Assembly: GCA_965249675.1 (NCBI GenBank) | Contig: OZ252250.1 | Coordinates: forward strand, 644,731-708,730 | Reading direction: 5' to 3' | Source: Dehalococcoidia bacterium | Lineage (GTDB): Bacteria; Chloroflexota; Dehalococcoidia; UBA2979 | Length of the DNA: 64,000 bases | Part shown: one piece after another, positions 2,622 through 54,002 of the stretch | Numbering within the stretch: the first letter of the stretch is position 1 | Layout of the letters: the number at the start of each line of letters is the position of its first letter | Made by a program: the position numbers and the translations under genes | The notes under the pieces: model-generated | The model's input: only the letters and a program-made list of their open reading frames with translations | What the model was told of the DNA's origin: nothing | Database searches by the model: none

Positions 2622-5600
2622 ATGCGTATCGGTCGCCGCTTCACCACCGCCGGACACAATCCCTACACGGGCATCCCCTTCGAGGGGCGCCTCTCGCGGA
2701 TTGTCAACCCGGACGGTTCCGTCGTCTTCGAGGCCCGCGACATCGAGATGCCGGCCCAGTTCTCTCAGGTAGCAACCGATATCATGGCTCAGAAGTACTT
2801 CCGCAAGGCCGGCGTACCAGCGGAGACCACGGCGGTGCCTGAAGAGGGCGTCCCCGAGTGGCTCGAGCGACGCGAGGCCGTGCCCGGCTCCCCGCTCAGC
2901 AGCGAGACCGACGCTCGCCAGGCGTTCCACCGACTGGCCGGTACCTGGGCCTACTGGGGAACCAGATACGGCTACTTCGACACGGACGAAGATGCGCGCT
3001 CCTTCTACGACGAGCTCGTGCACATGATGGCCAGCCAGCGCGCCGCCCCGAACTCGCCTCAGTGGTTCAACACGGGCCTCCACTGGGCCTATGGCATCGA
3101 GCGCCCCGCCCAGGGGCATTCCTATGTCGACCCCGGGACCGGCGAGCTAACCATGTCGCGCGGGGCATACGAACACCCCCAGCCGCACGCCTGCTTCATC
3201 CAGTCCGTCAAGGACGACCTGGTGAACGACGGCGGGATCATGGACCTGTGGACCCGCGAGGCTCGCATCTTCAAGTACGGCTCGGGCACCGGTTCGAACT
3301 TCTCGGCGATCCGCGGATCTGCCGAGGGGCTCTCGGGCGGTGGGAACTCGTCGGGGCTGATGTCGTTCCTCAAGATCGGCGACCGGGCCGCCGGCGCGAT
3401 CAAGTCAGGTGGCACGACTCGTCGCGCCGCCAAGATGGTGATCGTCGACGCCGACCACCCCGACATCGAAGAGTTCATCGACTGGAAGGTGTCTGAGGAG
3501 CAGAAGGTAGCCGCGCTGGTGGCCGGTTCCCGGCTGGTGCGCCGTCACCTGAGCGCGATCTTCGAGGCGACCGAGGGCGGACACGACCCCCGCCAGAACC
3601 GAGCGCTCCGCCGCGCGATCTCGCGGGCACGCCGTGACGCGGTGCCCGAGGGGTACCTGCAGCGAGTGCTCCAGCTGGCCGAGCAGGGCGAGGCGGAGAT
3701 CGACTTCCGCGAGTTCGACACGGACTGGCAGGGCGAAGCCTACGTCACCGTCTCCGGGCAGAACTCCAACAACTCGGTGCGCGTCTCGCAGGCCTTCATG
3801 TCCGCCGTCGCCAGCGACCGCGAGTGGCAGCTGACCCGGCGCACCGACGGCGCCGTCCACCGCACCGTGCGCGCCCGGGACCTCTGGGACCGGATCGGCC
3901 GTGCTGCCTGGAACTCAGCCGATCCGGGCCTGCAGTTCGATACAACCATCAACGAATGGCACACCACGCCAGCAGGCGGGCGCATCAACGGCTCCAACCC
4001 CTGCAGCGAGTACATGTTCCTGGACGACACCGCCTGCAACCTCGCCTCGATCAACCTGCTCGCCTTCACCGATCTGGAGAGCGGCGAGTTCGACCTCGAC
4101 GGCTACCGCCACGCGATCCGGTTGTGGACGATCGTCCTTGAGATCTCGGTGCTGATGGCCCAGTACCCGAGCGCGGAGATTGCCCGCCGCTCCTACCAGT
4201 ACCGCACCCTCGGTCTCGGCTACGCCAATTTGGGCGCTCTCTTGATGCTGGAGGGCCTTCCCTACGACTCTCCCGATGCACTGGGGTGGAGCGGGGCGCT
4301 CTCGGCGATCTTGACCGGCGAGTCCTACGCTACCTCCGCCGAACTGGCCGAACAGCTCGGTGCGTTCCCGTCCTACCCGGAGAACCGGGAAGAGATGCTG
4401 CGGGTCGTTCGCAACCACCGGCGGGCAGCCTACAAGGCGACCGCTGGCGAATACGAGCAGCTGTCCGTGCTGCCCCACGGGATCGATCCGGCAGACACGC
4501 CGGAGACGCTGCTGGAGGCCGCGCGCAGCGCCTGGGACCGCGCTCTCTCCCTCGGCGAGCAGCACGGCTACCGCAACGCGCAGACCACCCTGCTCGCCCC
4601 GACCGGCACCATCGGCCTCCTGATGGACTGCGACACGACCGGCGTCGAGCCAGACTTCGCCCTGGTCAAGTTCAAGAAGCTCGCCGGCGGCGGCTACTTC
4701 CGGATCATCAACCAGTCCGTCCCGACCGCGCTGCGCCGGCTCGGCTACTCACGCTCGGAGAGCGAGCAGATCGTCGCTTACACCGTCGGAACCCAGCACC
4801 TTGAGAGCTCCCCGTTCATCAACCGCACGACGCTCGCCGATCGCGGCTTCACCCGCTCGGCGCTCGATCGTCTCGACGATGCACTCGGTTCCGCCTTCCA
4901 CCTCAGCTTCGTCTTCAACCGCTACCAGCTCGGGGACGACTTCTGCCGCGACGGGCTCGGTCTCAGCCAGGCCGATCTCGACAGCCCCGGCTTCGACATT
5001 CTCACCGCGCTCGGCTTCACCCCCGAGCAGGTCGAAGCGGCAAACGACCACATCCTCGGACGCATGACGATCGAGGGGGCACCGCACCTGCGCCCGGAGC
5101 ACTACGCCGTCTTTGACTGTGCCAACCGCTGCGGCAAGTACGGGACCCGTTTCATCGCGCCGCTCGCCCACGTCCGCACCATGGCCGCGGTGCAGCCGTT
5201 TATCTCTGGCGCGATCAGCAAGACGATCAACATGCCGGCCGAGGCGACGATCGAAGAGGTCAAGGACGTCTACCAGTCCGCGAACGACTCGATGGTCAAG
5301 GCGCTGGCGCTCTACCGCGATGGTTCAAAGCTCTCCCAGCCGCTCGCCGCCACCGCCTGGGACGACCTGGACGACTACGACCTCGCCGAGGACGAGGAGG
5401 CCGAGATGCTCGAGCACCCGGCCGTGCGTGCCGCCGAGCAGATGCTCACCGAGCTACAGCGGGGCAAGCGAGAGATGCTGCCCTCCCGCCGCTCCGGCTA
5501 CTCGCAGAAGGCGAAGGTCGGCGGGCACACGATCTACATCCACACGGGCGAATTCGAAGGGGCGGCGGGTGACAGGCCACGCCTCGGCGAGGTCTTCATC

Positions 5601-6689: not shown

Positions 6690-7313
6690 TCAGACCGAGC
6701 GCGGACGCTCCGCCTCCCAGCGGCGGCGTTCGGCGGGCCACTCATCTGAGATGATCGACATCATGTACGCATCAACGTACCGCCCATGTTTGAATGCGTG
6801 GTGGCGAAGCACGCCATCGGCGCGGAAGCCGGCCTTCTCGTAGGCGCGGATCGCTCGCGCGTTCGCCACCTCGGGATCGATCGACACGATGTGGATGCCC
6901 CTCACCCCGAACAGATAGGACAGCATCGTGCGCACCGCCTCGGTGCCGAGTCCACGGTCGCGCGCGCCGGGCTCTCCGATCAGGATGTCGACCGCGGCCG
7001 TCCAGACGAATTCGGCGCCCGGGTAGGGATGCCCGTACTGGATCTCGCCGATCCCCTCCCCATCTTCTTCGATCACAAAGCGCCAGACCGGGTTGACGCC
7101 CCGCTCCAGGTAGTCCTCGCGCAGCTCGCCGATCGAGTCGGGCCGCTCCCCGTAGAACCGCCGTACCTCGGGGTCCCCCAGCCAGCGCCAGAGACCGGGG
7201 AGGTCGGCCTCCTCAAGTGGCTTGAGCCGCAGCCGTGGGCCGACGATCGGTTCGTGATCGCCGGGGAGCGGAACCTCGCCGCGACCGCTCATCTCCGCTT
7301 CACTGGCAGGCAC
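6690..7313 (-). CDS. GNAT family N-acetyltransferase
   Basis: GNAT acetyl-CoA binding core (RGLGTEAVRTMLSYLF...ANARAIRAYEKAGF). Its start lies 6 nt downstream of the DtxR stop, so it is likely co-transcribed. Confidence 0.85.
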   Translation of the reverse strand: MPASEAEMSGRGEVPLPGDHEPIVGPRLRLKPLEEADLPGLWRWLGDPEVRRFYGERPDSIGELREDYLERGVNPVWRFVIEEDGEGIGEIQYGHPYPGAEFVWTAAVDILIGEPGARDRGLGTEAVRTMLSYLFGVRGIHIVSIDPEVANARAIRAYEKAGFRADGVLRHHAFKHGRYVDAYMMSIISDEWPAERRRWEAERPRSV

Positions 7314-7319
7314 CGTGTG

Positions 7320-8000
7320 TCACGGCCGGTCGTCGTGCAGCCAGATCTGATGTGCGACCGCCAGCCCAACGACGATCTCGGCACCACCGGTATCGCCGAC
7401 CCGGAGCTTGACGGTGCCGAGGTAGCTCGCCACCTCGATCACCCGCACCGGCGCGCCGGGGCGAATGCCCTCGGCATCGAAGAAGCGCAGGAGTTCCTCG
7501 TCTTCCTCGAAGACCCGTTCGATCTCCCCCACTTCTCCGTCGGTCAGATCGCTGACGCGACGAGTCGACATCACCAGGTTTCCGTTCGTACCGGGAATCG
7601 GGTAGCCGAACGGGGAGGATTCCGGCGCGGAGAGCAGCTCGATGATCAGGGGTTCGGTGACATCGGAGATGGAGTGCTCCATCAGGTGCGCCTCTTCATA
7701 GGCACGCCACCACTCCAGCTGCAGGACGTTCACGAGCAGGCACTCGGCCAACCGGTGACGACGCACCATCTGTTCGGCGCGCTGGAAGCCCGAGCGAGTG
7801 AGCGAGACGTGCTTGCGAGCGTCGATCGCGACCAGCTGGTCGCGGCGCAGTCGTGACAGCATCCCTGCTACCGAGGCCGGACGTGTCCCCAGACGTTCAG
7901 CGATGCGCGCTGCGATGGGCTCTTCACCCTCATCGTGGGAGAGACGGTAAATCGTTGTCAGGGCATCATCGGCTGCAACGTTAGTGACCTGCTTAGGCAC
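7320..8000 (-). CDS. DtxR/IdeR/MntR-family metal-dependent transcriptional repressor with C-terminal FeoA/SH3-like domain
   Basis: Winged-HTH N-terminus (TTIYRLSHDEGEEPIAARIAERLGTRPASVAGMLSRL), metal-binding/dimerisation region, and a C-terminal FeoA-like domain. GTG start at 8000 is preceded by GAGGAGG; the ORF track's upstream ATG at 8054 is less likely. Confidence 0.85.
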   Translation of the reverse strand: MPKQVTNVAADDALTTIYRLSHDEGEEPIAARIAERLGTRPASVAGMLSRLRRDQLVAIDARKHVSLTRSGFQRAEQMVRRHRLAECLLVNVLQLEWWRAYEEAHLMEHSISDVTEPLIIELLSAPESSPFGYPIPGTNGNLVMSTRRVSDLTDGEVGEIERVFEEDEELLRFFDAEGIRPGAPVRVIEVASYLGTVKLRVGDTGGAEIVVGLAVAHQIWLHDDRP

Positions 8001-8225
8001 GAGACCTCCTCTCGGCCGACCGTGCCACGCTGGAGTTTCGCGCCGGGCGGTCACCGCCTCCCCGGGGTATGATCTGGAGCGGCCACTGCCGAACAGGCTG
8101 GCGACCGTTGGCAGTCGGAGCCGATCTTAGCACCGCGTCAGGCAGCTCGTGCACAGGCGCAGGGGGTCACTACCGGACCAGCGGTCCAGTGAGTTGCACT
8201 CCGATCGGATGAGAGGTCAGCAGGG

Positions 8226-8804: not shown

Positions 8805-8840
8805 GTTTGCCCTCCTGAACCGATGTCGAAGGGAAGTCCA

Positions 8841-9893
8841 ATGTCGATGCTCATCAGCGGCGGGATCAACTCCAGTGACATGCACTCGATCCCCGAGCGG
8901 GTCAAGCGGCTTGAGGATCTCGGCTGGAACTCGGTGAGCGTCGGGGAGACCTCGCACAACCCGTTCCTGCCCCTCGTGCTCGTCACCGAGCACACGCGCG
9001 AGATGCAGTTCGCCACATCGGTCGCCATCGCCTTCCCTCGCGTCCCCCACATCAGCGCGAACCTCGGCTGGGACCTCTCGAAATACTCGGGCGGGCGCTT
9101 CGTCCTCGGCCTCGGCACGCAGGTCAAGGGGCACAACGAGCGACGGTTCTCCGTGCCCTGGGCGCCGCCCGGGCCGCACCTCCGCGACTACATCCGTTGC
9201 GTGCGAGCGATCTGGGACTCCTGGCAGAACGGCACCCGACCCGACTACGAGGGCGAGTACTACCAGTACAAGCTGACGAGCCCCTTCTTCAATCCCGGCC
9301 CGATCGAGCATCCCGACATCAAGATCATTGTGTCGGCCGTGAACCCCTTCAACGCCCGTCTCGCCGGCGAGGTCGCGGACGGGATCGCGATCCACGGCTT
9401 CAGCACGTTCCAGTACATCCGCGAGGTGTTGATCCCCGCCGTGCACGAAGGCGCGCGGCGCGCTGGCAAGAACCCGGCCGACCTGCAGATCCGTGGCGGC
9501 GGGATGCTCGCCACCGGCCGCAGCGAGGAGGAGGTCCGGGCCGGACGCGAGGTGATCCGTCGCCGGATCTCCTTCTACGGTTCGACGCGGTCCTACTCAA
9601 ACGTCCTCAAGCTGCACGGCTGGGACGATGAAGCCGCCCACCTGCACCGCCTGTCGATCGATGGCAAATGGGACGAAATGGTCGGCGTTGTGACCGACGA
9701 CATGGTCGAGGAGTTCGCCGTCAGCGGCACCTGGGACGTGATCGCCGGCAAGCTCCGCGAGGCTTACGCCGGCATCAATACGCAGATCGGCTTCGAAGCC
9801 AGCCCCCGGAATCCCGATGAAGAGGACCAGGTTCGCGAGATCCTCGCCGACATCAAGGAGATCCCGACGGTCGGCCAGGCGACCGCCTCCTAG
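8841..9893 (+). CDS. LLM-class (luciferase-like) F420-dependent oxidoreductase
   Basis: TIM-barrel LLM signature (RFVLGLGTQ, GFEASPRNPDE) and overall family similarity. ATG 8841 with GGGAAG RBS is preferred over the track's ATG 8823. Confidence 0.8.
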   Translation: MSMLISGGINSSDMHSIPERVKRLEDLGWNSVSVGETSHNPFLPLVLVTEHTREMQFATSVAIAFPRVPHISANLGWDLSKYSGGRFVLGLGTQVKGHNERRFSVPWAPPGPHLRDYIRCVRAIWDSWQNGTRPDYEGEYYQYKLTSPFFNPGPIEHPDIKIIVSAVNPFNARLAGEVADGIAIHGFSTFQYIREVLIPAVHEGARRAGKNPADLQIRGGGMLATGRSEEEVRAGREVIRRRISFYGSTRSYSNVLKLHGWDDEAAHLHRLSIDGKWDEMVGVVTDDMVEEFAVSGTWDVIAGKLREAYAGINTQIGFEASPRNPDEEDQVREILADIKEIPTVGQATAS

Positions 9894-23135: not shown

Positions 23136-24404
23136 TCACCCCAGTTCGATCGCTGCCCGCTCCTCAAACACGATGCCGCGCTCAACCAGCCCGTCGAGTT
23201 GGTTCTCGCTGGTCCCCAGGAGCTCGGACAACACCTCTCGGCTGTGCTCCCCCATGTCGGGGGAGGTGCCCTTGATCCCGCCAGGCGTCCGCGACATTCG
23301 GACCGGCGTGTTCGGTAGCGGAATCGATCCGAGCGTGTGGTGTTCGACCGGGACCAGCATCTCTCTGGCGGCGACCTGCGGCAGCGCCGCCGCGGTCGGG
23401 ATGTCGTTGAGTGGGCCGCACGGAATCCCGTAGCGCTGGAGCGCTTCCACCCACTCGGCAGTCGTCCGACCGGCGAGGGCCCCGGTGAGCAGCCGCTCCA
23501 GCTCCGGATGATGCCACGAGCGCTCCTGGGCCGTCGAGAAGCGTGGGTCGTCGATCAGCTCGGGCAGCTCCAGCTCGGCGCAGAGTAGCCCCCACTGGTT
23601 GGGCACGCCCCATGAGAGGGCGATCACGAGGTGCCCGTCGGCGGTCGGGAATGCCTGGAACGGGACCGCCGTCGGATGTCGCGTCCCGAGCTTCTCAGGC
23701 GTCTTGCCGGTCACGTGGTAGCGCATGTAGGCGTTCTCGAGCACTGCCAGCTGACAGTCGAGCATCGAGATGTCGACGAGCTGGCCACGGCCGGAGCGCT
23801 CTCGCTCCCGCACCGCGGCCAAGATGCCGACAGCGCAGTAGAGCCCGGCTGCCAGATCCCCCAGCGAGAAGCCGGGACGGATCGGACCGCCGCCCGGCTC
23901 GCCCGTGATCGACATCACACCACCGGCCCCCTGCACAACCACATCGAGCGCCGGCAGAAGGCGCATCGGTCCGGTCTGCCCGTATCCGGAGATCGCCGCG
24001 TAGACGAGGCGCGGGTGAAGCACCGACAGCGCCTCATAGCCGAGGCCGAGGCGATCCATGGCCCCCGGTGTGAAGTTCTCAACGAGCACATCGACCTCGC
24101 CGACCAGCTCTCGGAAGAGTTCCTTGCCGGTGTCCGATTTGAGGTCGATGGAGAGCGAGCGCTTCCCGCGGTTGACCGAGAGGAAGTAGCCCGACTCGCC
24201 ATCGACGACAGGACCTGTCGTGCGCGACACATCGCCCCAGGGGGGCCGCTCGAGCTTGATCACGTCTGCACCGAGATCGCCCAGCGTCATCGTCGCGAAG
24301 GGCCCGGAGAGCACCCAGGTCAGATCGAGGATTCGCAGTCCCGCCAGGGGACCGGTGGTGGGAAGTGCCGGCATCGTCGGAGGCTCCTCGCTACGACCGC
24401 TCAA
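23136..24404 (-). CDS. CoA-transferase family III (CaiB/BaiF)
   Basis: N-terminal LAGLRILDLTWVLSGPFATMTLGDLGADVIKLE Rossmann motif and catalytic Asp region. 422 aa. Confidence 0.85.
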   Translation of the reverse strand: MSGRSEEPPTMPALPTTGPLAGLRILDLTWVLSGPFATMTLGDLGADVIKLERPPWGDVSRTTGPVVDGESGYFLSVNRGKRSLSIDLKSDTGKELFRELVGEVDVLVENFTPGAMDRLGLGYEALSVLHPRLVYAAISGYGQTGPMRLLPALDVVVQGAGGVMSITGEPGGGPIRPGFSLGDLAAGLYCAVGILAAVRERERSGRGQLVDISMLDCQLAVLENAYMRYHVTGKTPEKLGTRHPTAVPFQAFPTADGHLVIALSWGVPNQWGLLCAELELPELIDDPRFSTAQERSWHHPELERLLTGALAGRTTAEWVEALQRYGIPCGPLNDIPTAAALPQVAAREMLVPVEHHTLGSIPLPNTPVRMSRTPGGIKGTSPDMGEHSREVLSELLGTSENQLDGLVERGIVFEERAAIELG

Positions 24405-24549
24405 CCCCCTGAGGCTACCGGCGATCGTCTCTCCGGTCCCTCCGGGGCGCCGGATCGCACGCCTCCTGGGCGGCAGCGCCGGCGGGCCGGAGATTGACAG
24501 GTCGCGATCGGGACCGGAAAGATGGTCGGGTTGGCAAGGGGGCGCGCCG

Positions 24550-25413
24550 GTGCAACTGGGAGTGGTCTTTCCGCAGACGGAGATCGGAGCCGATCCGGCG
24601 GGCGTGCGAGACTACGCGCTCGCCGCCGAGGCCGCCGGCTACGAGCACCTGCTCGCCTACGACCATGTGCTCGGCGCCGACCCCGGTCGGCCGGGCGGCT
24701 TCCGTCGCCCCTACACGCACGAGTCCCTCTTCCATGAGCCACTCGTGCTCTTCGGCTTCCTGGCCGCCCTGACCGCCCGCCTCGAGCTCGTGACGGGCAT
24801 CCTGATCCTGCCGCAGCGGCAGACCGCGCTGGTCGCCAAGCAGGCAGCGGAGGTCGACGTCCTCAGTGGTGGCCGGCTGCGCCTCGGGATCGGCGTCGGC
24901 TGGAATGCCGTCGAGTACGAGGCGCTGGGCGAGGAGTTCGGCAATCGCGGCCGGCGCGTCGAGGAACAGATCGCGCTCTTGCGCCAGCTCTGGGCGGAGC
25001 CGGTGATCACGTTCGCCGGGCGGTACCACACGATCACGCGTGCCGGCCTGAAGCCGCTGCCGCCCGGCCGCTCGATTCCCATCTGGATCGGCGGAATGTC
25101 CGATCGCGTGAAGGAGCGACTGGGCCGACTCGGCGACGGATGGTTCCCGCAGTACCAGGACCCGGCACAGCTGGCCGCGGGCGTCGCCGAGATCCGCGAA
25201 GCGGCCCTGGCGGCAGGGCGTGACCCCGAGGCGATCGGGATCGAGCCGCGGCTCAACCTGACCGACGACCTCTCGGCCGACACCGCGCTGGCAGAGAGGT
25301 GGCGCGAGGCCGGCGCCACCCATCTCTCCGTCAACACGATGGGTCGTGGGCGCGAAGGCGTCCGCCAGCACATCCTCGCGATCGAGCGGTTCAAGGCCGC
25401 CTACCCGCAATAG
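24550..25413 (+). CDS. LLM-class F420-dependent oxidoreductase (~287 aa)
   Basis: VQLGVVFPQTEIG...LRLGIGVGWN...IWIGG typical of LLM F420 oxidoreductases. GTG 24550 with AAGGGGG RBS. The ORF track's 5' extension to 24220 is antisense to the neighbouring gene and rejected. Confidence 0.8.
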   Translation: MQLGVVFPQTEIGADPAGVRDYALAAEAAGYEHLLAYDHVLGADPGRPGGFRRPYTHESLFHEPLVLFGFLAALTARLELVTGILILPQRQTALVAKQAAEVDVLSGGRLRLGIGVGWNAVEYEALGEEFGNRGRRVEEQIALLRQLWAEPVITFAGRYHTITRAGLKPLPPGRSIPIWIGGMSDRVKERLGRLGDGWFPQYQDPAQLAAGVAEIREAALAAGRDPEAIGIEPRLNLTDDLSADTALAERWREAGATHLSVNTMGRGREGVRQHILAIERFKAAYPQ

Positions 25414-25433
25414 TCACCCACGGAGGGATCACG

Positions 25434-26753
25434 TTGACAACCACGGCAGAGCCGCAACTGGACTGGAACGCACTGACCGAGGAGGCCACGGCATGGCTCT
25501 CCGACTACATCCGCGTCGACACCGTCAACCCACCGGGGAATGAGACCCGTGCCGCGCGGTGGTTCGCCGAGATCCTCGATGCCGAAGGGATCGAGTATCA
25601 GACCTTCGGCCGCACCGACAGCCGGCAGAGCCTGGTCGCCCGGTTGCCGGGCGACGGCTCACGGGGCGACGCGCTGATCCTGCTCAACCACACAGACGTC
25701 GTCCCGTTCGAGATCGAGCACTGGACGAAGGAGCCGCTCGCCGGCGAGGTCAGCGATGGCTTCATCTGGGGCCGCGGCGCCGTCGACATGAAGGGGATGG
25801 GGATCATGGAGTTCGTCTCCTTCCTCCTCCATCACCGCTACAACCTCCCGCTCAAGCGAGACCTGGTGTTCATGGCCGCTGCCGATGAGGAAGCCGGATC
25901 GGACTACGGGGTCGAGTTCTTCGACCGCGAACACCCCGAATTGCTCAAGTGTGACTACGTGATCAATGAGGGGGCCTGCGGAACGGTCGACATCCTCGGT
26001 AAGGAGCGGCCCACCTTCAACATCGGCGTCTCCGAGAAGGGCCCCTTCTGGCTGACGCTGCGCACCACCGGCAGGCCCGGCCACGGCTCGGTGCCGACCG
26101 ACGACAACGCCGCGGTGCGGCTCGTGCGGGCGCTCGATCGCATCAGCGAGTGGGAGCGGCCGCTCCTGCCGACGCCGGTGGTGAGCGAGTATTTCCAGCA
26201 GCTTCACGACCATGGCGTCCTGGACGAACCACCGAGCGAAGAGGTGCTCGCCCGCCTGGCCGAGCAGCACCCGCGCCTCAGATCGCTCCAGACGAACTCG
26301 ATCTCACTCACGATGCTCGATGCCGGCGTCAAGATGAACGTCATCCCCGCCCACGCCACGGCCACCCTGGATTGCCGGTTGGTGCCGGGCTACGACCGCG
26401 AGCAGTTCATCGAGGAGCTGCGCAGCGTGATCGACGACCCTGAGGTGGAGATCACGCGCGAATTCGAGTCATCGACCGAACCGTCCACCATGGACACCGA
26501 GCTCTACCGGTTGATGACCGCCACGGCGAAGGATGCGGTCGAGGACGCGATCGTCGTGCCGAGCGTCTCGACCGGCTTCACCGACTCCAGGGTCTTCCGG
26601 CGGCGGGGTGTTCCGGCCTACGGCTTTATCCCGGTCCTGCTCGGACCGGAGGAGAACGGTACCGCCCACGGCAACGACGAGTGTCTCTCGATCGAGAATC
26701 TGCGGATGGGGATCCAGATCCTGCACCGCACGATCCGCGGCATCTGCGGGTAA
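25434..26753 (+). CDS. M20 family metallopeptidase (ArgE/DapE/CPG2-like)
   Basis: LLNHTDVVP, GRGAVDMKG, AADEEAGS metal-ligand motifs and the dimerisation domain. TTG 25434 follows a GGAGGG RBS. Confidence 0.85.
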   Translation: MTTTAEPQLDWNALTEEATAWLSDYIRVDTVNPPGNETRAARWFAEILDAEGIEYQTFGRTDSRQSLVARLPGDGSRGDALILLNHTDVVPFEIEHWTKEPLAGEVSDGFIWGRGAVDMKGMGIMEFVSFLLHHRYNLPLKRDLVFMAAADEEAGSDYGVEFFDREHPELLKCDYVINEGACGTVDILGKERPTFNIGVSEKGPFWLTLRTTGRPGHGSVPTDDNAAVRLVRALDRISEWERPLLPTPVVSEYFQQLHDHGVLDEPPSEEVLARLAEQHPRLRSLQTNSISLTMLDAGVKMNVIPAHATATLDCRLVPGYDREQFIEELRSVIDDPEVEITREFESSTEPSTMDTELYRLMTATAKDAVEDAIVVPSVSTGFTDSRVFRRRGVPAYGFIPVLLGPEENGTAHGNDECLSIENLRMGIQILHRTIRGICG

Positions 26754-26789
26754 CCGGGCGCCGCAACCGGGCCGGGCCCTCGCCTGGCT

Positions 26790-27569
26790 CTACTCGCCGG
26801 GCTCAACCGTGAAGCGGCCGCTATCGGAGCGCCCGAATACCTCGGGGAAATAGGTCTCCTGGGCATGCGTGGGGGCGACGAAGAAGTCGTCTGGCGCCGT
26901 GGCGCGCGCGTAGTAGACGTACTCGTGGACACCTCTCGGGAGCCGCGCGGCGTGCAGCGTCAGCCGGTCGTCGCGAATGTCTACCTGGTCCCAGGGGCTG
27001 TAGTACCAGCGGTACCAGGGGGCGGCGTACGACTGCCCGCCTCCCTGGACGGCCTCCGCGCGCTCTGCCTCAAGCTGCCGCTTGAGCCAGTCGGAAACGA
27101 TGTTGAGGCGCGGATCGATGGGCTCCAGCCCGGCGGGCAGGAAGTCCTCGACCCTGGCGAAGAGGCGGTCGGCCGGCGCCACCATCGTCACGGTCACCCG
27201 CACCACGTCGCCTAGCCGGACAGTCGTGACCGCTCGGTCAGGCTCATCAAGGAGCGAATAGCGATGAGAGACCGAGAAGCCGCGGTTGAGCGCCTCAACC
27301 TCGCTCGCCGGGGTCAGGTATCTGAGGTTGAGGCCGTAGTACATGCGCCCTGGGCCGCTCGTGTCTCGCTCGAACTGAAGGCGGGCCACCTCGCCGAGCG
27401 GCAGCTCCCCGAGCGCGACCAGCGCACCGTCGCGATCGTCGCCCCCGGGTACGTCAAAGTGGCCCTGGAGCAGCTGGCGGGTGTCCAGCCAGACCGCGTA
27501 GTCGTAGACCCCCCGGGTTAGGCGCCGGATAGCGTCTCGCCCCCGGGCATCACACCCGCCGATCGCACC
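26790..27569 (-). pseudogene. Stand-alone alpha-2-macroglobulin C-terminal (MG/receptor-binding-like) fragment of ~200-260 aa; the rest of the usually >1500-aa protein is absent
   Basis: DIRDDRLTLHAARLPRGVHEYVYYARATAPDDFFVAPTHAQETYFPEVFGRSDSGRFTV matches the bacterial A2M C-terminal consensus (D.RDDRV.LF...L..G.H...Y..RA..PG.F..PP..AE.MYYPE). The open frame runs to a TAG at 27570-72 and the first start codon is GTG 27389. No upstream A2M ORF exists. Confidence 0.55.
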
Positions 27570-27605
27570 CTACCGCGTTCTCGGGGGGCTTACCGGTCCG
27601 ACCTG

Positions 27606-28487
27606 TCAGGGCTGGTGGACGGCGACGAGCCGATCGAGCACCTCCCGCAGGTCGGACTCACTGAGCGGGCCGAACGCCCGGTCGCCGGCAGTGTCGGGAC
27701 CGCTATTCGGCGGCACGGTCGCAAATGCCGGGTGGCGGGCCACGCCCATCTCCCCCGCCAGGGAGCGCTGGTCACGATCATCGAAGTCGAGGATCACGAA
27801 GTTGACTTGTGATTGGTATTCCAGCCTGAGCCCGTTCACGACGGGCCGCGTCAACGCGCAGGACGGTCACCAGATGGCATCGACGAAGACCAGCGTCGCT
27901 TTCCCGTTGGTCGGGAGATAGGCCCCGGTGTGGTCCACGTAGTCGGTCGGCAGTTCGTAGTCGGCCGAGATCGTGCGGGCCGGTCCGGTTGGGAAGTCGT
28001 AGACGACCGCCGGCTCGGGGGTTGCGGTCGCTCCGGGCGTCGGCGTTGCGTGCACCAGTGTCGGCGTCGCCGTCGGCACGGCAGTGGCCGGCGTCGCTGT
28101 CGGCGCGGCTGGTGCCCCAGTGGTCGGCGTCGCTGTCGGCGCGGCTGGTGCCGCAATGGTCGGCGTCGCTGTGGTTGCCGCCGTGGCCGGTGCCGGCGTC
28201 GCCGCCGGCGTCGTCACCCCGGCCTGGGTCGACTCTACGGTCGGCGCCGCCCGGGCGGCCGTCGTCTGTTGCGGTGCCGAGGGCGCCGTCGGCGCCTGGC
28301 TGCTCGCCTCTGCCGTGGAGGTCTCGGTCGCCCGCCCTGCCGCCGGCGTTCCGACGGTCTCTGCGGTCGCGGCCGTTGCAACCGGGCTCACCGCCGCCGG
28401 AGCATCGTCACCGCCGCCGCTGCAAGCCAGTGACGCCACCACGACCAGCACACCAGCCAGCCACGACGCGCGCCGCACGTCGCCCAT
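27606..28487 (-). CDS. Thioredoxin-fold lipoprotein with in-frame TGA at the first Cys of the CxxC motif (W-[TGA]-P-S-C): candidate selenocysteine UxxC thiol-disulfide oxidoreductase, or opal-disrupted pseudogene
   Basis: Signal peptide plus lipobox (MGDVRRASWLAGVLVVVASLAC|SGG) and an Ala/Thr/Pro-rich tandem-repeat linker. The thioredoxin fold (TLVFVDAIW-TGA-PSCALTRPVVNGLRLEYQSQVNFVILDFDD...HPAFATV...) continues in the same frame across TGA 27867-69. Confidence 0.6.
27830..27858 (-). ncRNA. Two hairpins 9-37 nt downstream of the in-frame UGA (candidate bacterial SECIS-like element)
   Basis: mRNA: UGA CCGUCCUG [CGCG-UUGA-CGCG] [GCCCGU-CGUGA-ACGGGC]. Second hairpin has a perfect 6-bp stem with a G/U-containing 5-nt apical loop ~27-31 nt after UGA. 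Confidence 0.3.
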
Positions 28488-28574
28488 GGTCGAACTCCCG
28501 GCAGCCAACAGAGAGGCGCACAGTGGACCGCCCACCAGACGATCAGTCTATGTCAGTCCCCTGGCAGGTCACAG

Positions 28575-29450
28575 TTAGGGCACCCGACTCCTCGCCCATC
28601 GGTCTCCCAGCAGATGCTTGGCGAGCTCTGACCCGCCCGGCGCATCGGGGTCGTCCTTGAACCGTTCGAGCCGGCGATAGACATCGGCCGCCGCCCGGTG
28701 GAAGCCGTCGGGCAGCTGGTTCGCCTCAAAGGTCTGCGCCATCTCCTCCATCTCGCCGACGAAGCGCCACGCCTTGGCGGCCGCGACGGGTAGACCTCGC
28801 CGGGAGCGCTCGAGCAGCTGTGGCTGGGACTGCTCCCACTCCTCGGTGAGCGGCTCGAGTACGCCCTCGGCGAGGGCCAGCGCCCAGATGTTCGCGAGCA
28901 GCGCACTCGTACCCTTGGTCCATGCTGAATAGGCCATCTTCAGAGCCGAGGCGGCGCCGATACGGTTGCCCATGCATCTCACGCCGAGGTCCCCGCCACT
29001 GAGTAGCAGCGCCACCTGCTCGGCCTGGTCGCCCGAGAGATAGAGTCGGGTCGATCCGGGTTGCCGGGCCGGGGGACCGATAAGGCTGCCATCGACGTAG
29101 CTCCCGTGGTTTCGCTCCACGATCTCCCCGATCGCGCGAGACGTCTCGGGTGCAATCGCGTTGGCGTCGACGTAGATCCCGCGGTAGCCAAGCCCGCAGA
29201 CCTCCTCGGCAACGTCCGTCGCGAATTCCGGCGGACAGACCGAGATGATGACGCGGCTCTGGTTCACGAGCGCGTTGAGCCAGAAAACGTCCTCAAGCCC
29301 GTCCGCCTCGGCACGCGCCACCGACGCCTCGCTACGCCCCTCGGAGACCCAGGCCACGCGCACCCCGGAGGCCTTCGCCGCCGCACCGATCGAAGAGCCC
29401 ATTGCCCCCGGATGGAGGAGTCCGACCGTGGTCACATCAGGATCCTGCAT
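28575..29450 (-). CDS. NAD(P)-binding oxidoreductase, 6-phosphogluconate/3-hydroxyisobutyrate dehydrogenase-like N-domain with DUF1932-like C-domain
   Basis: VGLLHPGAMGSSIGAAA Rossmann motif. Start ATG overlaps the stop of the upstream MBL gene (GCTGATGCAG). Confidence 0.7.
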   Translation of the reverse strand: MQDPDVTTVGLLHPGAMGSSIGAAAKASGVRVAWVSEGRSEASVARAEADGLEDVFWLNALVNQSRVIISVCPPEFATDVAEEVCGLGYRGIYVDANAIAPETSRAIGEIVERNHGSYVDGSLIGPPARQPGSTRLYLSGDQAEQVALLLSGGDLGVRCMGNRIGAASALKMAYSAWTKGTSALLANIWALALAEGVLEPLTEEWEQSQPQLLERSRRGLPVAAAKAWRFVGEMEEMAQTFEANQLPDGFHRAAADVYRRLERFKDDPDAPGGSELAKHLLGDRWARSRVP

Positions 29451-30523: not shown

Positions 30524-32188
30524 CTAGTGAGCAGCGCTCGTCAACCAACCAAACTTCTGCGGTTTCCGCTTGGCATCGGCGGCGATCGGCACGTTGATCA
30601 GGGATGGTCGGTCAAGCGTGAGCGCCTCGGCCAGCGCGGCATCGAGCTCCTCGATCGTTTCGGCGTTGTAGCCGACGCCTCCCAGGCCCTCCATCATCAC
30701 GTCGTAGCGGGCGGCCGGATTCATCGCACCGGGCGGCACCATACCGCTGTCGATCTGCTCCTGAGTGTGGCCACCAATCCCGCCGTTGTTGAAGACGACC
30801 CAGACGATCGGCAGGCCGTAGCGGACGGCCACCTCGCACTCGGTGCCGGCGAAGCCGAATGCCGCGTCCCCCTGCAGGCAGAGGATCTTGCGATCCGGGT
30901 GCTCAACGGCCGCCGCCACGGCGAAACCGTGTCCCAGACCCATAGACCCGAACGAACCGGCGTCGAGACGCGTGCGCGCCTCGTAGTTGTTGAGCACCGT
31001 CCTGCTGATGTCCATCGTCGAAGCGCCCTCGGCAACGATGATCGCATCGTTCGGTAGCGCATTGTCGATCGACTTCAGGGCGGGGTAGTACTGCAGCGGT
31101 GTCGAGTGATCGGCGTACATCGCCTCGATCGCCTCGGCGTTCTGGCGAGCCTCGGCCCTGACGGAGTTGAGCCACTCAGAGTCCTGCGGGAACTGCCACG
31201 GCTCCTCATCAAGGGCATCGAGCAGCTGCCCGAGCGTCGCCCTGGCGTCGCCAATCATCGCCACCTCGGAGGGGACGTTGACGCCGATCTCCTCGGGGTT
31301 GAAGTCGAGCTGCACGACCCGCACATCCGCGCGGAAGCGCGGCGGCAACCCGAAGTGCAACATCCAGTTGAGCCGGGCGCCGGCCAGGAAGATCAGGTCG
31401 GCGTTGGAGAGCACGAACGATCGCGCCGCTGCGGCCGCCTGCTCGTGGTCGTCCGGGAGAATGCCCTTGGCCATCGGCATCGCCAGGTAGGGGATGCCGG
31501 TCGCCTCGACGAAGCGGCGCATCTCGGCCTCGGCGCGTGAGGCGGCGATCCCCTTACCGATGATAATCAGCGGCTGTTCGGCGCTCTTCAGTGACTCGAG
31601 CGCCGCCTGCACGTCGCTGGGATCGGACATCAGCCGACTGGCGTCGGGCACGCGCGGCGCCCACTGGACGTCCTCCTCCTCCACCTGGCCAGTGATGACG
31701 TCACCGGGCAGATCGAGGTAGGCGGGCCCCGGAACACCCATGAGGGCCTTCTTGACGGCCTCAGCGATGTAGATCGGGAGGCGCTCGACCGACTCCGCTC
31801 GCTTGGCGTACTTGGCATACGGCGCCATCGCCGCCACCTGCTCGGCCTCCTGAAAGAAGCCCATGTCGACACCGCTCTGCTCACCGGCGCCGCCGAGCAA
31901 GAGCAGCGGCCAGCGGTTCGACCAGGCGTTGGCGAAGGCGGCGACCGCGTTCAGGGCGCCCGGGCCGGAGACCAGGAGTGCCGCGCCGATGCGGCCGGAG
32001 ATGTAGGAGCTGGCCTGCGCAGCGTAGGTCGCCGGCATCTCGTGCCGCATCCCTACGTAGTTGATGCCCTCACGCTGGGCCGAGCCCGCGATGATGGCGA
32101 CGGGGATACCGACCACCCCGTACATGTTCTTGACACCCTGCGTCTTGAGCGCCTTCGCGATGATCTGGTGCCCGCTGATCTTGCCCAC
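30524..32188 (-). CDS. oxc: Oxalyl-CoA decarboxylase (ThDP-dependent)
   Basis: Full-length similarity to Oxc: N-terminal ThDP PYR domain (MYGVVGIPV...GPGALNAVAAFANA), ThDP binding (LQGDAAFGFAGTE...NNGGI), C-terminal YDVMMEGLGGVGY. GTG 32188 with GGGAGG RBS gives ~555 aa. Confidence 0.85.
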   Translation of the reverse strand: MGKISGHQIIAKALKTQGVKNMYGVVGIPVAIIAGSAQREGINYVGMRHEMPATYAAQASSYISGRIGAALLVSGPGALNAVAAFANAWSNRWPLLLLGGAGEQSGVDMGFFQEAEQVAAMAPYAKYAKRAESVERLPIYIAEAVKKALMGVPGPAYLDLPGDVITGQVEEEDVQWAPRVPDASRLMSDPSDVQAALESLKSAEQPLIIIGKGIAASRAEAEMRRFVEATGIPYLAMPMAKGILPDDHEQAAAAARSFVLSNADLIFLAGARLNWMLHFGLPPRFRADVRVVQLDFNPEEIGVNVPSEVAMIGDARATLGQLLDALDEEPWQFPQDSEWLNSVRAEARQNAEAIEAMYADHSTPLQYYPALKSIDNALPNDAIIVAEGASTMDISRTVLNNYEARTRLDAGSFGSMGLGHGFAVAAAVEHPDRKILCLQGDAAFGFAGTECEVAVRYGLPIVWVVFNNGGIGGHTQEQIDSGMVPPGAMNPAARYDVMMEGLGGVGYNAETIEELDAALAEALTLDRPSLINVPIAADAKRKPQKFGWLTSAAH

Positions 32189-32648
32189 TCTGCCTCCCAG
32201 TCTGCTGATGAATCTCGTCCAGGTAACCGTCACCCCAGCTCGGGTCGGCACGCACGATGCTGATGATACACGTCCGCCCCACTTCGCGCGGCCCCTGTCC
32301 GCTCTGGCGCGGACGCCGTATCGGCCCCGGCTTGAGGAACTCCGTCTGCGCCCCGGGGCGGGGCGCCGGCTCGCGTCGAGACGGGCATCCAGTCGCCCTG
32401 CTGGCCGCCGGCCCGGCTCGGCTGTGGAGGCTGTTGTCCTCGTTCTCCTTCTTCCTCCGTGCGCTCTGACTTGCGATCACTGCGCCCTGAGCCGGCTGGC
32501 GAGTACGCTACCGGGAGCGGTGCTGTCGATCGGCCACGAGGCCGGGTGGTGCGCACCGGCCGGAAGCGGAGGCCGCACCACTACCGCCCCGTGCCACCAA
32601 GAAGGAGCAAGGGGTCGGGCGGACGACAGCCACAGTGGGAGTGTGCCA

Positions 32649-33869
32649 ATGGCCCGTCCGGACCTTGACCCGCCGAGCGGCGAGGGAGAGCCGCGCTCGG
32701 CCCTGAGCGGCATCCGCATCTTGGACTTCACCCGCTACCAGCAGGGTCCGTTCGCGACGATGCTGCTCGCCGAGATGGGCGCCGAGGTGATCAAGGTGGA
32801 GGAGCCCGGGGGAGAGCCCGGCCGCGCCAACGGGCGGGACGCGAGCGGGTTCTCCGCCTACTTCGAGGGATACAACCGCAGCAAGAAGTCGATGACGCTG
32901 AACCTGCGCACCGATCGAGCGCGCGATGTTGTCCGCCGCCTCGTCCCGAGCTGCGACGCCATCGTCGAGAACTTCCGACCCGGCCAAATGGAGCGCTGGG
33001 GCCTCGGCTACGAGGATCTGCGCGAACTGCACCCCACCATCATTGTCGGCTCCGGCTCCTCGTGGGGACGCCACGGGCCGTGGGCCAACCGACCGGGCTA
33101 CGACCACGTCGGGCAGGCACTGAGCGGCATCATGTACGAGCAGGGCGAGGGGCCGGGCGGCGAACCGCACGCCCTGGTCGGGGGGTTTGCCGACCAGATC
33201 GGGGCGATGCTGCTCGCCTTCGGCGTCAGTACAGCGATCGTCGCTCGCGAGCGGTTCGGGGTCGGTCAGCACGTCGATGTGTCGCTGATCGGCGGGATGA
33301 CGGCGCTCCAGTCGATGCAGTTCACGCGCTACTTCCGGACCGCCTTCCAGAGCGGCTTTCAGCGGCGCCGGGCCGCCACCTACACCAACTACGAGTGCCA
33401 GGACGGCGGGCACATCGCCATCGCCGCCAACACACAGCGGTTCTGGGAGCGTCTCTGCGAGGCGATCGGACACCCGGAACTGCGGACGGATCCGCGGTTC
33501 TCGAACCCATTCGGGCGCGCCGAACACAAGGACGAACTGGTCGCGACGCTCGGGTCGATCTTCCTCGAGCGGCCACTGGCGGACTGGCTCGAGCCGATCA
33601 GCTCGGCGGATGTCCCGAACGCCCCGGTGCTCGACTACGCGGGCGTGACCGAACATCCCCAGTTCTGGGCGAACGACTACTTCCAGGAGATCACCCACGC
33701 CCAGCTCGGTCCGATGCGTGTCCCCGGTCCCCCCGTGCAGATGAGCGAGACCCCGCCCCAGATCAGGGGCGGCAGCCCTGAACTGGGTATGCACACCGAG
33801 GAACTCCTGCTCGAGGCGGGCTACGACTGGCCAGAGATCAGCGAGCTCCGCGACGGCGGGGCGATCTAG
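32649..33869 (+). CDS. CoA-transferase family III, divergent from oxc (candidate formyl-CoA:oxalate CoA-transferase, Frc/YfdW-like)
   Basis: LSGIRILDFTRYQQGPFATMLLAEMGAEVIKVE family III motif. ATG 32649 after a GGGAG RBS. ~400 bp shared divergent leader with oxc. The 5' extension in the ORF track is rejected. Confidence 0.8.
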   Translation: MARPDLDPPSGEGEPRSALSGIRILDFTRYQQGPFATMLLAEMGAEVIKVEEPGGEPGRANGRDASGFSAYFEGYNRSKKSMTLNLRTDRARDVVRRLVPSCDAIVENFRPGQMERWGLGYEDLRELHPTIIVGSGSSWGRHGPWANRPGYDHVGQALSGIMYEQGEGPGGEPHALVGGFADQIGAMLLAFGVSTAIVARERFGVGQHVDVSLIGGMTALQSMQFTRYFRTAFQSGFQRRRAATYTNYECQDGGHIAIAANTQRFWERLCEAIGHPELRTDPRFSNPFGRAEHKDELVATLGSIFLERPLADWLEPISSADVPNAPVLDYAGVTEHPQFWANDYFQEITHAQLGPMRVPGPPVQMSETPPQIRGGSPELGMHTEELLLEAGYDWPEISELRDGGAI

Positions 33870-46678: not shown

Positions 46679-47635
46679 GTGAGCGTTCGCATCGGCATCG
46701 GCCTCGCCAACCTGCCCTTCGCCTCCGCCCGCGAGCTGTGGCGCTGGGTCGACCTCCTGGAGGACGGCGACGTCGACTCCCTGTGGCAGACGGACCGGCT
46801 GATCAGCCGCACGCCGATCCTCGAGTCGATGAGCCTGATGGCGGCGCTGGCGGGGCGCACCGAACGCCTCAAATTCGGAATGAATGTGGTGGTGGTGCCG
46901 TTCCGTGATCCGCTGGTCCTGGCCAGGCAGTGCGCCACCATCGACTATCTCTCCAACGGTCGCCTGCTGCCGGCATTCGGCGTCGGCCGCGCGATCTCTC
47001 CCGAGTTCGGGCGCGTCGATCGCTCGAGCCGAGGGCGCGGAGGCCGAACGAACGAGGTGCTCGAGGTGATGGCGCGGCTGTGGAGCGAGGACGATATCAG
47101 CTTCTCAGGCGAGCACCTCTCCTACCGTGGCGTCACGATCGAGCCGAAGCCGGTGCAGTCGCCGCTGCCGATCTGGATCGGCGGATCGTCGCCAGCGGCC
47201 GTCCGGCGCACCGCGCACTACGGCACGGGCTGGCTCGGCGGCGTGCAGTCGCCCGTGCAGATCGCGCCCGTAATCCGGGCGATCAGCGAGCAGTCGCGGG
47301 CGGCCGGGCGGCCGGTCGACCCCGATCACTACGGTGCCGGGATGCCCTTCCGATTCGGCTCGTGGAACGACCCGATCGTGCAGCAGGCCGCCGGAGCCAT
47401 GAACCGGCTGGCCGACGCCGGAGACCCGCGCCGGATGATGGGCGTCGGCGATGCCGCCGCCATCATCGCCCGCATCGACGAGTACATCGCCGCCGGCGCC
47501 TCCAAGTTCGTGCTGCGACCGCTGGCCGAGAGCGGCGCCGAATTCGTCAGGCAGACCGAGCGGCTGATCGAAGAGGTGATTCCGCTGGTGCACTCCACCC
47601 GCGTCACCGCTCCCCTCTCGCTCGTGGCTCCCTAG
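46679..47635 (+). CDS. LLM-class F420-dependent oxidoreductase
   Basis: MSVRIGIGLANLPF...KFGMNVVVVP...RLLPAFGVGR...IWIGGSS family motifs. Confidence 0.8.
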   Translation: MSVRIGIGLANLPFASARELWRWVDLLEDGDVDSLWQTDRLISRTPILESMSLMAALAGRTERLKFGMNVVVVPFRDPLVLARQCATIDYLSNGRLLPAFGVGRAISPEFGRVDRSSRGRGGRTNEVLEVMARLWSEDDISFSGEHLSYRGVTIEPKPVQSPLPIWIGGSSPAAVRRTAHYGTGWLGGVQSPVQIAPVIRAISEQSRAAGRPVDPDHYGAGMPFRFGSWNDPIVQQAAGAMNRLADAGDPRRMMGVGDAAAIIARIDEYIAAGASKFVLRPLAESGAEFVRQTERLIEEVIPLVHSTRVTAPLSLVAP

Positions 47636-48645: not shown

Positions 48646-49824
48646 GGACGCTCTGAACTGGCCGCGAAATGCGGCCGATCAGGCTCTTCTGGGGCGTTCA
48701 ATCGCTTGATGGTCAGGAATGCGGCCTGATCGGGGCTCGCGAGCGGCTCTGCGAGTGCCGTTTGGCGCTCGCTGCGGGATTCTGGGCGCACTGCGCCGTT
48801 GTTACGCAGCAAGTTGGCGCTCCGCTCGAACCATGTTGGCCAGCCCCAACAGCAACGCGAGCCGCTGCGTGTTCTTGAACAATCCGCGGTAGCGGACCTT
48901 GGCGTAGCCGAAGCGCACCTTCACGATCTGGAACGGATGCTCGACCTTCGCACGCACGGAGGCCTTGCGCTTCTCTTCGAGCCACTCCTCACCCTCCCGG
49001 TCGAGCAGTCGCCGCTTGCCCGGTCGCATGGCAACCTGCCACTGCACCGCACGCTCGCGCTGCTCCAGACGTTTTCCGATGCCCTGGTAGCCCGCATCGC
49101 CACAGACCAGCCTTTCGTTGCCGTGCAGCAGGTCGGGCGCCGCGGTGATGTCGCTCACGTTCGCCGCCGTCGTGTGGAGGCTGTGCACGATGCCGCTCTC
49201 AGAGTCCACCCCGATGTGCAACTTCATCCCGAAGTACCACTGGTTTCCCTTGCGCGTCTGGTGCATCTCGGGATCCCGTGCTCTGGTCGACGAGGGGGCG
49301 CTGATGATACTGGCATCAACCACAGTCCCCTGTCTCAACTGCAGTCCTTCCGCCTCCAGATGGCGGTTGATCTCCTCGAGCAACCCCCTCCCCAGCGCGG
49401 CCGCCTCCAGCCGGTGGCGGAAGTTGAGAATCGTCGTCTCATCGGGGATCGCGTCCGATAGCCTGAGCCCCACGAAGCGCTGCACGGTGAGATTCTCGTA
49501 CAGCGCGTCCTCCATCGCCGGGTCGCTGAGGTTGTCGACCAGTTGCACGATGTGCACCCGCAGCATCAGTGACAGTGGGTAGGGCTGGCGCCCCCGTCCC
49601 GGCATCGGGTAGTGGGGCGCAATGCGCTGCTCGAGTTGCCGCCACGGAACCAGCCGATCGAGTCGTTCCAGAAACCGCTCCCGGCGAGTCGTTCGCTTCT
49701 TCGCGTCGTAGTACAGCTCCGCGAACGTTGCCTCGCCCATCGCGCTCACCTCGTCATCTGGTCGAATGCCATACCATCCCGTGTAGGCATCTTAACAGAT
49801 CATGCGGGTCTGTTCAGAGCGTCC
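48646..49824 (-). mobile_element. IS5-family insertion sequence (IS5 group), ~1179 bp, with 13-bp terminal inverted repeats GGACGCTCTGAAC and a 4-bp CTAG target-site duplication
   Basis: IRL at 48646-48658 and IRR at 49812-49824 are perfect inverted copies, flanked by CTAG at 48642-45 and 49825-28. Encodes a full-length IS5-like DDE transposase. Confidence 0.85.
48802..49749 (-). CDS. IS5-family DDE transposase (315 aa)
   Basis: Collinear with E. coli IS5 transposase (RQPYPLSLMLRVHIVQ..., NLSDPAMEDALYE, DPEMHQTRKGNQWYFGMKLHIGVD, DAGYQG, RAKVEHPF). Confidence 0.9.
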   Translation of the reverse strand: MSAMGEATFAELYYDAKKRTTRRERFLERLDRLVPWRQLEQRIAPHYPMPGRGRQPYPLSLMLRVHIVQLVDNLSDPAMEDALYENLTVQRFVGLRLSDAIPDETTILNFRHRLEAAALGRGLLEEINRHLEAEGLQLRQGTVVDASIISAPSSTRARDPEMHQTRKGNQWYFGMKLHIGVDSESGIVHSLHTTAANVSDITAAPDLLHGNERLVCGDAGYQGIGKRLEQRERAVQWQVAMRPGKRRLLDREGEEWLEEKRKASVRAKVEHPFQIVKVRFGYAKVRYRGLFKNTQRLALLLGLANMVRAERQLAA

Positions 49825-53808: not shown

Positions 53809-54002
53809 GGGCTGCCTCCTCCGCCCGAATTATGCGCGCACCGTCACCCGGCTGGCGAACGGCACCCCCAGGGGGCCGATCCGGGCCCGCGCCCCGGCTC
53901 ACTCAGGCTGCCTGCGAATCGACTACGATTCGAGTGAAACACAGCCGGCCGAGGCATCTCGCCCGTGCCCGGGACAACCTGCCACAGCGAAGAGAGGTGA
54001 TC

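Follow-up and report, generated by a model that had tools for sequence, protein, structure and literature searches.

In fdhF of Escherichia coli, the selenocysteine insertion sequence (SECIS) is a hairpin that starts 11 nucleotides (nt) after the UGA codon, has a bulged U in its upper stem and presents in its loop a GU, at nt 23-24, that is the contact for SelB; the minimal element was reportedly narrowed by Liu et al. in 1998 to a 17-nt upper stem-loop (cited in PMC4607533). The published consensus for bacterial SECIS elements, the model of Zhang and Gladyshev (2005; bSECISearch) as it is summarised in Fig. 2A of PMC13188914, has an apical loop of 3-9 nt, an upper stem of 4-16 bp, a minimum free energy (MFE) of -7.5 kcal/mol or lower, a G in the first two loop positions that is usually followed by G or U, and a distance of 16-37 nt from the UGA to the loop (PMC13188914). 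A common hairpin of 5-6 bp with an invariant loop G is described from other bacteria (PMC4607533). Among bacterial selenoproteins, the commonest family type is the thioredoxin-fold UxxC type, which includes thioredoxin (PF00085), thiol:disulfide interchange protein (PF13098) and thiol-disulfide isomerase-like protein (PF13905) (PMC1088965, PMC9312934, PMC13188914). Here we describe two hairpins that follow an in-frame UGA on the minus strand of a 64,000-nt stretch of a Dehalococcoidia bacterium (contig OZ252250.1 of assembly GCA_965249675.1, positions 644,731 to 708,730; hereafter the window). The second of them, hairpin 2 (27847..27829, minus strand), is very probably a bacterial SECIS within the gene for an exported thioredoxin-like (lipo)protein, with the UGA as its selenocysteine (Sec) codon.

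A first-pass annotation of the window had pointed to tandem hairpins placed like a bacterial SECIS, and the hairpin sequence, coordinates, stem lengths and distances that it gave all match the minus strand. This reads UGG-UGA-CCGUCCUG-CGCG-UUGA-CGCG-GCCCGU-CGUGA-ACGGGC-U or, divided into codons, GAU GCC AUC UGG UGA CCG UCC UGC GCG UUG ACG CGG CCC GUC GUG AAC GGG CUC AGG. Numbering from the U of the UGA as nt 1, the window coordinate of nt n is 27870 minus n, and the features of the locus are the following.

27606..28535, minus strand: complete putative selenoprotein gene, as an in-frame translation across the UGA
28422..28487, minus strand: predicted signal peptide, read from the translation, ending at the lipobox-like Cys38 (..VVVASLA-C-SGGG)
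27702..27902, minus strand: region coding for the Pfam Thioredoxin domain (PF00085), spanning the UGA
27869..27867, minus strand: in-frame UGA (nt 1-3), read as a Sec codon that replaces the first (nucleophilic) Cys of W-C-x-x-C, here W-U-P-S-C
27858..27847, minus strand: hairpin 1 (CGCG-UUGA-CGCG; nt 12-23), 4 bp, within the 19-nt spacer that separates the UGA from the putative SECIS stem
27846..27830, minus strand: hairpin 2 (GCCCGU-CGUGA-ACGGGC; nt 24-40), 6 bp
27847..27829, minus strand: hairpin 2 extended by a G23.U41 wobble (GGCCCGU/ACGGGCU; nt 23-41), the putative SECIS core
27840..27836, minus strand: apical loop CGUGA (nt 30-34), 27-31 nt after the UGA
27839 and 27838, minus strand: loop bases G31 and U32

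Hairpin 2 agrees with every rule of the consensus, having a 5-nt loop that opens C-G-U, a stem of 6-7 bp, a distance of 26 nt and an energy of -10.7 kcal/mol. It lies inside the open reading frame (ORF), immediately 3' of the UGA, in frame and translated. Relative to the consensus, the common loop sub-pattern with N1 paired to N2 around G[G/U]N is seen only in triloop variants of the relatives described below (C-GUC-G and C-GUU-G), N1.N2 in the window loop being C.A, and in this family the spacing is fixed and the CGUG(C/A) loop nearly invariant. Like the E. coli fdhF element, hairpin 2 is a short upper hairpin with a loop GU at a fixed distance 3' of the UGA and is translated into protein; unlike it, it has its GU at nt 31-32 rather than nt 23-24, and no conserved lower helix.

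Read across the UGA, the gene encodes a signal peptide with a lipobox-like ...SLAC, a Pro/Thr/Ala-rich linker and a thioredoxin domain, in that order. The longest ORF starts at GTG 28535 (minus strand), with ATG 28487 (M-GDVRRAS-WLAGVLVVVASLA-C) the likely start codon of the gene. The ORF that ends at the UGA (28535..27867, minus strand) encodes 222 amino acids (aa), ending ...GKATLVFVDAIW, and beyond the UGA this frame stays open as PSCALTRPVVNGLRLEYQSQVNFVILDFDD...VAVHQP through 86 further codons to a second UGA at 27608..27606. This is the gene's own stop, and no SECIS-type hairpin was found after it. With C in place of U, the 309-aa read-through product matches PF00085 over aa 212-278 (24.6 bits; cut-off 23.5), and thioredoxins in the PDB match it at E = 3e-6, the best alignment, to 2l5l, setting aiWCpsC against adWCgpC with the UGA at the nucleophilic first Cys of CxxC. 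Hairpin 2 encodes (R)-P-V-V-N-G-(L), the start of thioredoxin helix alpha-1. The fold was modelled on a Cys homologue (P0008) with AlphaFold, at low confidence (predicted local distance difference test score 58.5); the model has the thioredoxin order beta-alpha-beta-alpha-beta-beta-alpha and places CxxC at the N-terminal end of helix 1, and it superposes on classical thioredoxins with target-normalised template modelling scores of 0.72-0.84 and root-mean-square deviations of 1.5-2.0 A.

Searches for relatives were made at the protein and the DNA level. The protein search returned 11 full-length forms with Cys at the UGA position (WCPSC, WCPTC, WCPFC or WCFFC), 13 N-terminal fragments from different organisms, all of which stop exactly at ...LVFVDAIW, and 3 C-terminal fragments. 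At the DNA level, 41 loci were found in species-representative genomes, all labelled as metagenome-assembled genomes (MAGs) of Dehalococcoidia or Chloroflexota, and a further 28 in metagenomes, giving 69 related loci. At least 73 gene copies, which comprise 57 distinct 60-mers, have TGA after VDAIW and an open frame of 82-93 codons beyond it, and TGC takes the place of the TGA in 8 gene copies among the 69 related loci. Variant motifs, VDSIW-U-MAC and VDAIL-U-PFC, occur in three loci (L015, L053 and L050). Public gene calls, NCBI-held copies included, treat the gene as two ORFs and truncate it at the UGA. Such calls would suit a UGA that genuinely terminates translation, or that arose as a pseudogene lesion or a sequencing error, with the hairpins incidental to GC-rich conserved coding sequence. 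Against that explanation, the TGA stands at the identical codon in the at least 73 copies, which come from dozens of MAGs as well as metagenomes, the frame downstream is open and conserved and encodes the remainder of the thioredoxin fold, and truncation at the UGA would remove the whole catalytic domain.

The 57 distinct sequences with TGA (Sec forms) were aligned from the UGA through nt 60, which required no indels, and helix 2 was scored as nt 23-29 against nt 35-41 by explicit pair counting. It is paired in 98.5%, with compensatory double changes at four of its seven pairs: 25-39 (CG to UA, 4 sequences), 27-37 (CG to UA, 4 sequences), 28-36 (GC to AU, 10 sequences, plus 2 with G.U intermediates) and 29-35 (UA to GC, 4 sequences). 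Double-change cells numbered 22, compared with 3.2 +/- 1.4 in shuffled alignments, and the covariation score was 0.218, compared with 0.103; in neither case did any of 500 shuffles reach the observed value. When the 3' partner was slid by 1-3 columns, pairing fell to 6-55%. There are 17 distinct variants of hairpin 2, including stems of 7-8 bp with GUC or GUU triloops; across the relatives, loops are of 5 or 3 nt and stems of 6-8 bp, and identical compensatory changes appear again in separate clades. None of the 57 sequences departs from G31 or U32, and the distance from the UGA to the loop is 26 nt in the window and in every relative. RNAalifold, applied to the same 57 sequences, returned a weak and partly mis-registered helix 2 (-1.8 kcal/mol).

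Some of the compensatory changes replace amino acids (Val to Ile, Pro to Ser, Gly to Arg, and Val-His to Gly-Ala), and the changes at their pairing partners are either synonymous or likewise non-synonymous. As stem changes that alter the protein are accompanied by a change in the partner, we conclude that selection acts on the RNA. Codon choice in the stem is also distinctive. For the Pro codon, the Sec forms use CCC in 47 cases, CCU in 5 and CCG in none (0/52), whereas CCG accounts for 51% of Pro codons in the ORFs of the window. The Gly codon is GGG in 46 and GGA in 4 and never GGC, which makes up 49% of Gly codons in the window ORFs, and the Arg codon is CGG in 54 of 57, compared with 28% of Arg codons.

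The Cys forms are different. CCG encodes the Pro in seven of the eight, helix 2 is lost from all eight, with 1-5 of 8 scored pairs left, and local fold energies are -2.8 to -6.4 kcal/mol, where the Sec forms average -12.1 kcal/mol. Two Cys forms (L055 and L071) lack helix 2 even though they encode R-P-V-V-H, the 3' arm having changed from ACGGGC to AUUCGC. On a rough neighbour-joining tree, built without support values, the Cys forms are found at three separate positions among the Sec forms, and loss of helix 2 would thus have accompanied the Sec/Cys difference at least three times. Helix 2 is under selection at the RNA level and is coupled to Sec rather than to Cys. The first-pass annotation had named the Cys orthologues beforehand as a check on both hairpins, and had singled out the second, with G and U in its loop, as lying at the distance typical of SelB-binding apical loops. 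For hairpin 2 both this identification and the check held, as did the proposed search for compensatory changes; hairpin 1, taken up below, behaved differently in each.

Several points weigh against the reading of hairpin 2 as a SECIS. In the window sequence alone, RNAfold retains both hairpins, as the first-pass annotation had asked, in the MFE and centroid structures of 73-nt and 41-nt contexts, and hairpin 2 by itself folds at -10.7 kcal/mol with z = -3.2; compared with dinucleotide shuffles, neither the 41-nt nor the 73-nt context shows added stability (z = -0.33 and -1.19, respectively). Among the 1543 TGA triplets of the window, a consensus-type hairpin of -7.5 kcal/mol or lower, held to SECIS-type loop and spacing rules, follows 13%, and one of -10 kcal/mol or lower follows 6.8%, which bears out the earlier caution that GC-rich coding sequence forms hairpins readily. 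On a single sequence, then, the hairpin is real yet within chance at this GC content, and its significance comes from the comparative evidence. The aligned sequences are related, so that the shuffle control overstates their independence; the slid-partner control and the contrast between Cys and Sec forms are stronger arguments than the shuffles. The stem, unlike that of E. coli fdhF, lacks a bulged U and begins at a distance of 19-20 nt from the UGA. No Rfam family matched at gathering score in the whole window, nor any SECIS or relevant family at E <= 10 in 27500-28100, so the covariance-model comparison that had been proposed found nothing; the empty result is uninformative, as family models capture bacterial SECIS elements poorly. 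Neither selA, selB, selD nor a tRNA-Sec was found within the 64-kb window by motif scans, Pfam searches of 30 ORFs and ARAGORN, and that the source organism decodes Sec would follow from its class only. In a scan of the window and 55 related loci, the one tRNA that ARAGORN predicted was a 93-nt 'tRNA-Pro (ggg)' at L035 645-737, which has no Rfam tRNA match and was rejected as a false positive and not a tRNA-Sec.

The frequency of hairpins after TGA triplets and the unremarkable folding of the longer contexts are also what an incidental hairpin at a true stop, lesion or sequencing error would show. Constraint on the protein cannot explain the compensatory changes or the avoidance of the preferred CCG and GGC, and hairpin 2 vanishes exactly where TGA gives way to TGC. 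The comparative data already refute this explanation, and we give it practically no weight.

The lack of Sec machinery in the window could also point to a UGA that is recoded in some way other than as Sec, either by read-through with a near-cognate tRNA (Trp, Cys or Arg) that the hairpin stimulates or by a lineage-wide reassignment of UGA, and downstream structures can stimulate read-through in other systems. We regard this as very unlikely. UGA terminates 14 of 48 ORFs in the window (crude ORF calls), and this gene itself, from which it follows that the genetic code is standard and the recoding local. The recoded site is the nucleophilic Cys of a CxxC motif with Cys-form orthologues, the signature of a Sec/Cys pair (PMC1088965), and hairpin 2, whose small apical loop has an invariant GU, conforms to the SelB-type consensus (PMC13188914). 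The class is also known to decode Sec: selenoproteomes of 49 and 46 genes place Dehalococcoidia MAGs among the ten richest in bacteria (PMC13326102).

Hairpin 1 had been proposed together with hairpin 2 as a tandem element. If both formed a bipartite SECIS, hairpin 1 would be functional, for example as a spacer helix or a ribosome pause element that sets the distance from the UGA to the loop. Its presence in the MFE structure, the constant length of the spacer in the 57 sequences and the retention of the hairpin in L015 and L053 by way of G.U wobbles (UGUG/CGCG) are in keeping with such a role. Scored as nt 12-15 against nt 20-23, helix 1 is paired in 87.7% of cells across the Sec forms, but without a single compensatory change; its covariation score equals that of the shuffles, and every departure is a broken pair, the inner pairs being broken in 11 or 12 of the 57. 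In paralogues that encode C-E-I-A-R or C-A-P-A-R it pairs only in a shifted register. Six of the eight Cys forms, which lack helix 2, keep helix 1 fully intact, where it follows the Cys-Ala-Leu-Thr/Ala-Arg codons; helix 1 therefore tracks the codons for Cys-Ala-x-x-Arg (UGC GCG xxx xCG CGG) and not Sec. Its energy is just -3.7 kcal/mol, and with the UGA in the A site it would probably sit inside or at the edge of the mRNA channel of the ribosome. A bipartite element is thus improbable, and hairpin 1 is most likely a by-product of the coding sequence rather than a required part of the SECIS. Of the tandem hairpins first proposed, it is the second that stands.

Other candidate structures were considered and set aside. 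A lower helix between nt 6-11 (GUYCUG; 27864..27859 in the window, minus strand) and nt 55-60 (CAGGAC, Tyr-Gln-Asp codons; 27815..27810, minus strand) is 90% paired in the Sec-form relatives, but 4-6 of its 6 pairs form in the Cys forms and 2 of 6 in the window, and it was rejected as part of the SECIS and attributed to coding coincidence. A scan of 27300-28800 found no promoter-like or terminator-like sites, and the hairpins were rejected as an intrinsic terminator or promoter. The window and all retrieved loci were also searched for further selenoprotein genes with a similar hairpin, which gave no matches under strict criteria and 22, none of them convincing, under loose ones.

With hairpin 2 as the SECIS, a ribosome nearing the UGA at 27869..27867 would have the stem of 6-7 bp and its CGUGA loop close to the mRNA entrance, about 20 nt further downstream. 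SelB, loaded with GTP and Sec-tRNA(Sec), would use its C-terminal domain to bind the loop through the invariant G31 and U32, and would deliver Sec to the A site while competing with release factor 2. The ribosome would then melt hairpin 2 and translate it as Arg-Pro-Val-Val-Asn-Gly-Leu, and would stop at the second UGA (27608..27606), where there is no such hairpin. The resulting redox centre, W-U-P-S-C, would belong to an extracytoplasmic thioredoxin-like oxidoreductase. Binding by SelB and incorporation of selenium are inferred, and the known mechanism of Sec insertion is unchanged by the finding.

From its sequence, the product would be a thioredoxin-fold UxxC selenoprotein. It shares with that class the thioredoxin fold, Sec at the position where CxxC has its first Cys, orthologues in the Cys form and a SECIS after the UGA. 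Both the SECIS and the UxxC gene are of a well-known kind, and the SECIS itself is ordinary. The gene differs from other UxxC selenoproteins in its signal peptide or lipobox, its W-U-P-x-C motif, a conserved N-terminal extension (DFPTGPAxLV...TGAYLPxNGKPTLVFVDAIW) and the presence of 1-3 nearby paralogues in Dehalococcoidia. Matches in NCBIfam were to generic thioredoxin, StoA and DsbE models only, all far under cut-offs, and selenoprotein-specific models in that collection (e.g. SaoT NF040730 and HUIPC-motif NF047660) gave no match at E <= 0.1. At the lipobox position, homologues have L-V-A-C, L-A-A-C or V-A-A-C, and the protein is predicted to be exported, lipidated and anchored to the membrane on its extracytoplasmic side. 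The Pro/Thr/Ala-rich linker is far longer in the window gene than in relatives and contains a 36-nt tandem repeat (2.5 copies, 94% match, window 28082-28172).

While the window holds a single copy of the gene, several related Dehalococcoidia genomes have two or three nearby paralogues, all with the TGA and helix 2, that are of the types W-U-QFC, W-U-PxC and a third type. Their positions within the respective loci are as follows.

L003: 2481 and 3129
L005: 2526 and 3126
L008: 2516 and 3126
L009: 2513, 3126 and 4535
L013: 2538, 3150 and 4681
L035: 2491, 3129 and 4627
L023: 1415 and 3132

The surroundings of the gene are ordinary metabolic genes. Upstream is a DUF1932 dehydrogenase-like protein and downstream a bMG10-domain protein, past which lie genes for an M20 peptidase, a luciferase-like monooxygenase and a family III CoA-transferase. 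The same gene order is found in L075, a locus 96% identical to the window, where the copy of the gene is annotated as two ORFs of 218 aa and 77 aa. The Cys-form locus L070 shares with window 23136-29450 the DUF1932 dehydrogenase-like protein, M20 peptidase and luciferase-like monooxygenase as neighbours, in a different orientation, and these common neighbours of a Cys form and a Sec form support their orthology. ORFs that overlap the gene on the plus strand are Arg-rich antisense artefacts.

Some further observations concern the window at large. The luciferase-like monooxygenase ORF (24220-25413, plus strand) and the M20 peptidase ORF (25299-26753, plus strand) overlap by 115 nt in different frames, while in L075 a single gene of 734 aa (2770-4974) carries both domains, which may be a frameshift or a gene-fusion difference. 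There are at least four luciferase-like monooxygenases (8823-9893, 24220-25413, 46679-47635 and 53832-55061) and at least four family III CoA-transferases (23136-24404, 32061-33869, 51290-52546 and 52543-53808) in the window, a content that we take to be typical of SAR202-type Dehalococcoidia. An IS5-like transposase (DDE_Tnp_1 and DUF772) is found at 48802-49749 (minus strand), with a similar one near the L075 locus at 7282-8056. Stop codons in the 48 crude ORF calls are TAG in 29, TGA in 14 and TAA in 5; the dominance of TAG is unusual at the 68% GC of the window and might be related to heavy use of UGA for Sec in the lineage.

The annotation of the locus is corrected accordingly: what appeared to be a 222-aa hypothetical protein and an 82-aa orphan is one predicted 309-aa selenoprotein with a Sec-x-x-Cys centre, and the same split recurs in dozens of Dehalococcoidia genomes. 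As a bacterial SECIS, the element would come with unusually clear comparative proof, in the form of covarying pairs, rare codons that the stem forces, and a hairpin that disappears with each switch from Sec to Cys. Only the distal hairpin matters, and the family would be useful for training predictors of SECIS elements and selenoproteins in GC-rich genomes, where single-sequence hairpin criteria carry 7-13% false positives.

Tentatively, and with appreciably less confidence than in the SECIS itself, we suggest that these genes represent a Dehalococcoidia-wide, so far undescribed family of exported thioredoxin-like seleno-(lipo)proteins, with W-U-P-x-C centres, one to three nearby paralogues per genome, a gene that is split by gene callers at the UGA, and a lineage-typical SECIS. 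The last may take the form of a perfect stem of 6-7 bp with a CGUG(C/A) pentaloop or a GUY triloop, at a fixed spacing of 26 nt and with no bulged U. If so, the motif that SelB recognises in Chloroflexota could be defined by this form, and the repeated conversions from Sec to Cys would be a natural experiment in how a SECIS constrains the protein that it encodes (R-P-V-V-H-G-L compared with R-P-I-F-H-D-L).

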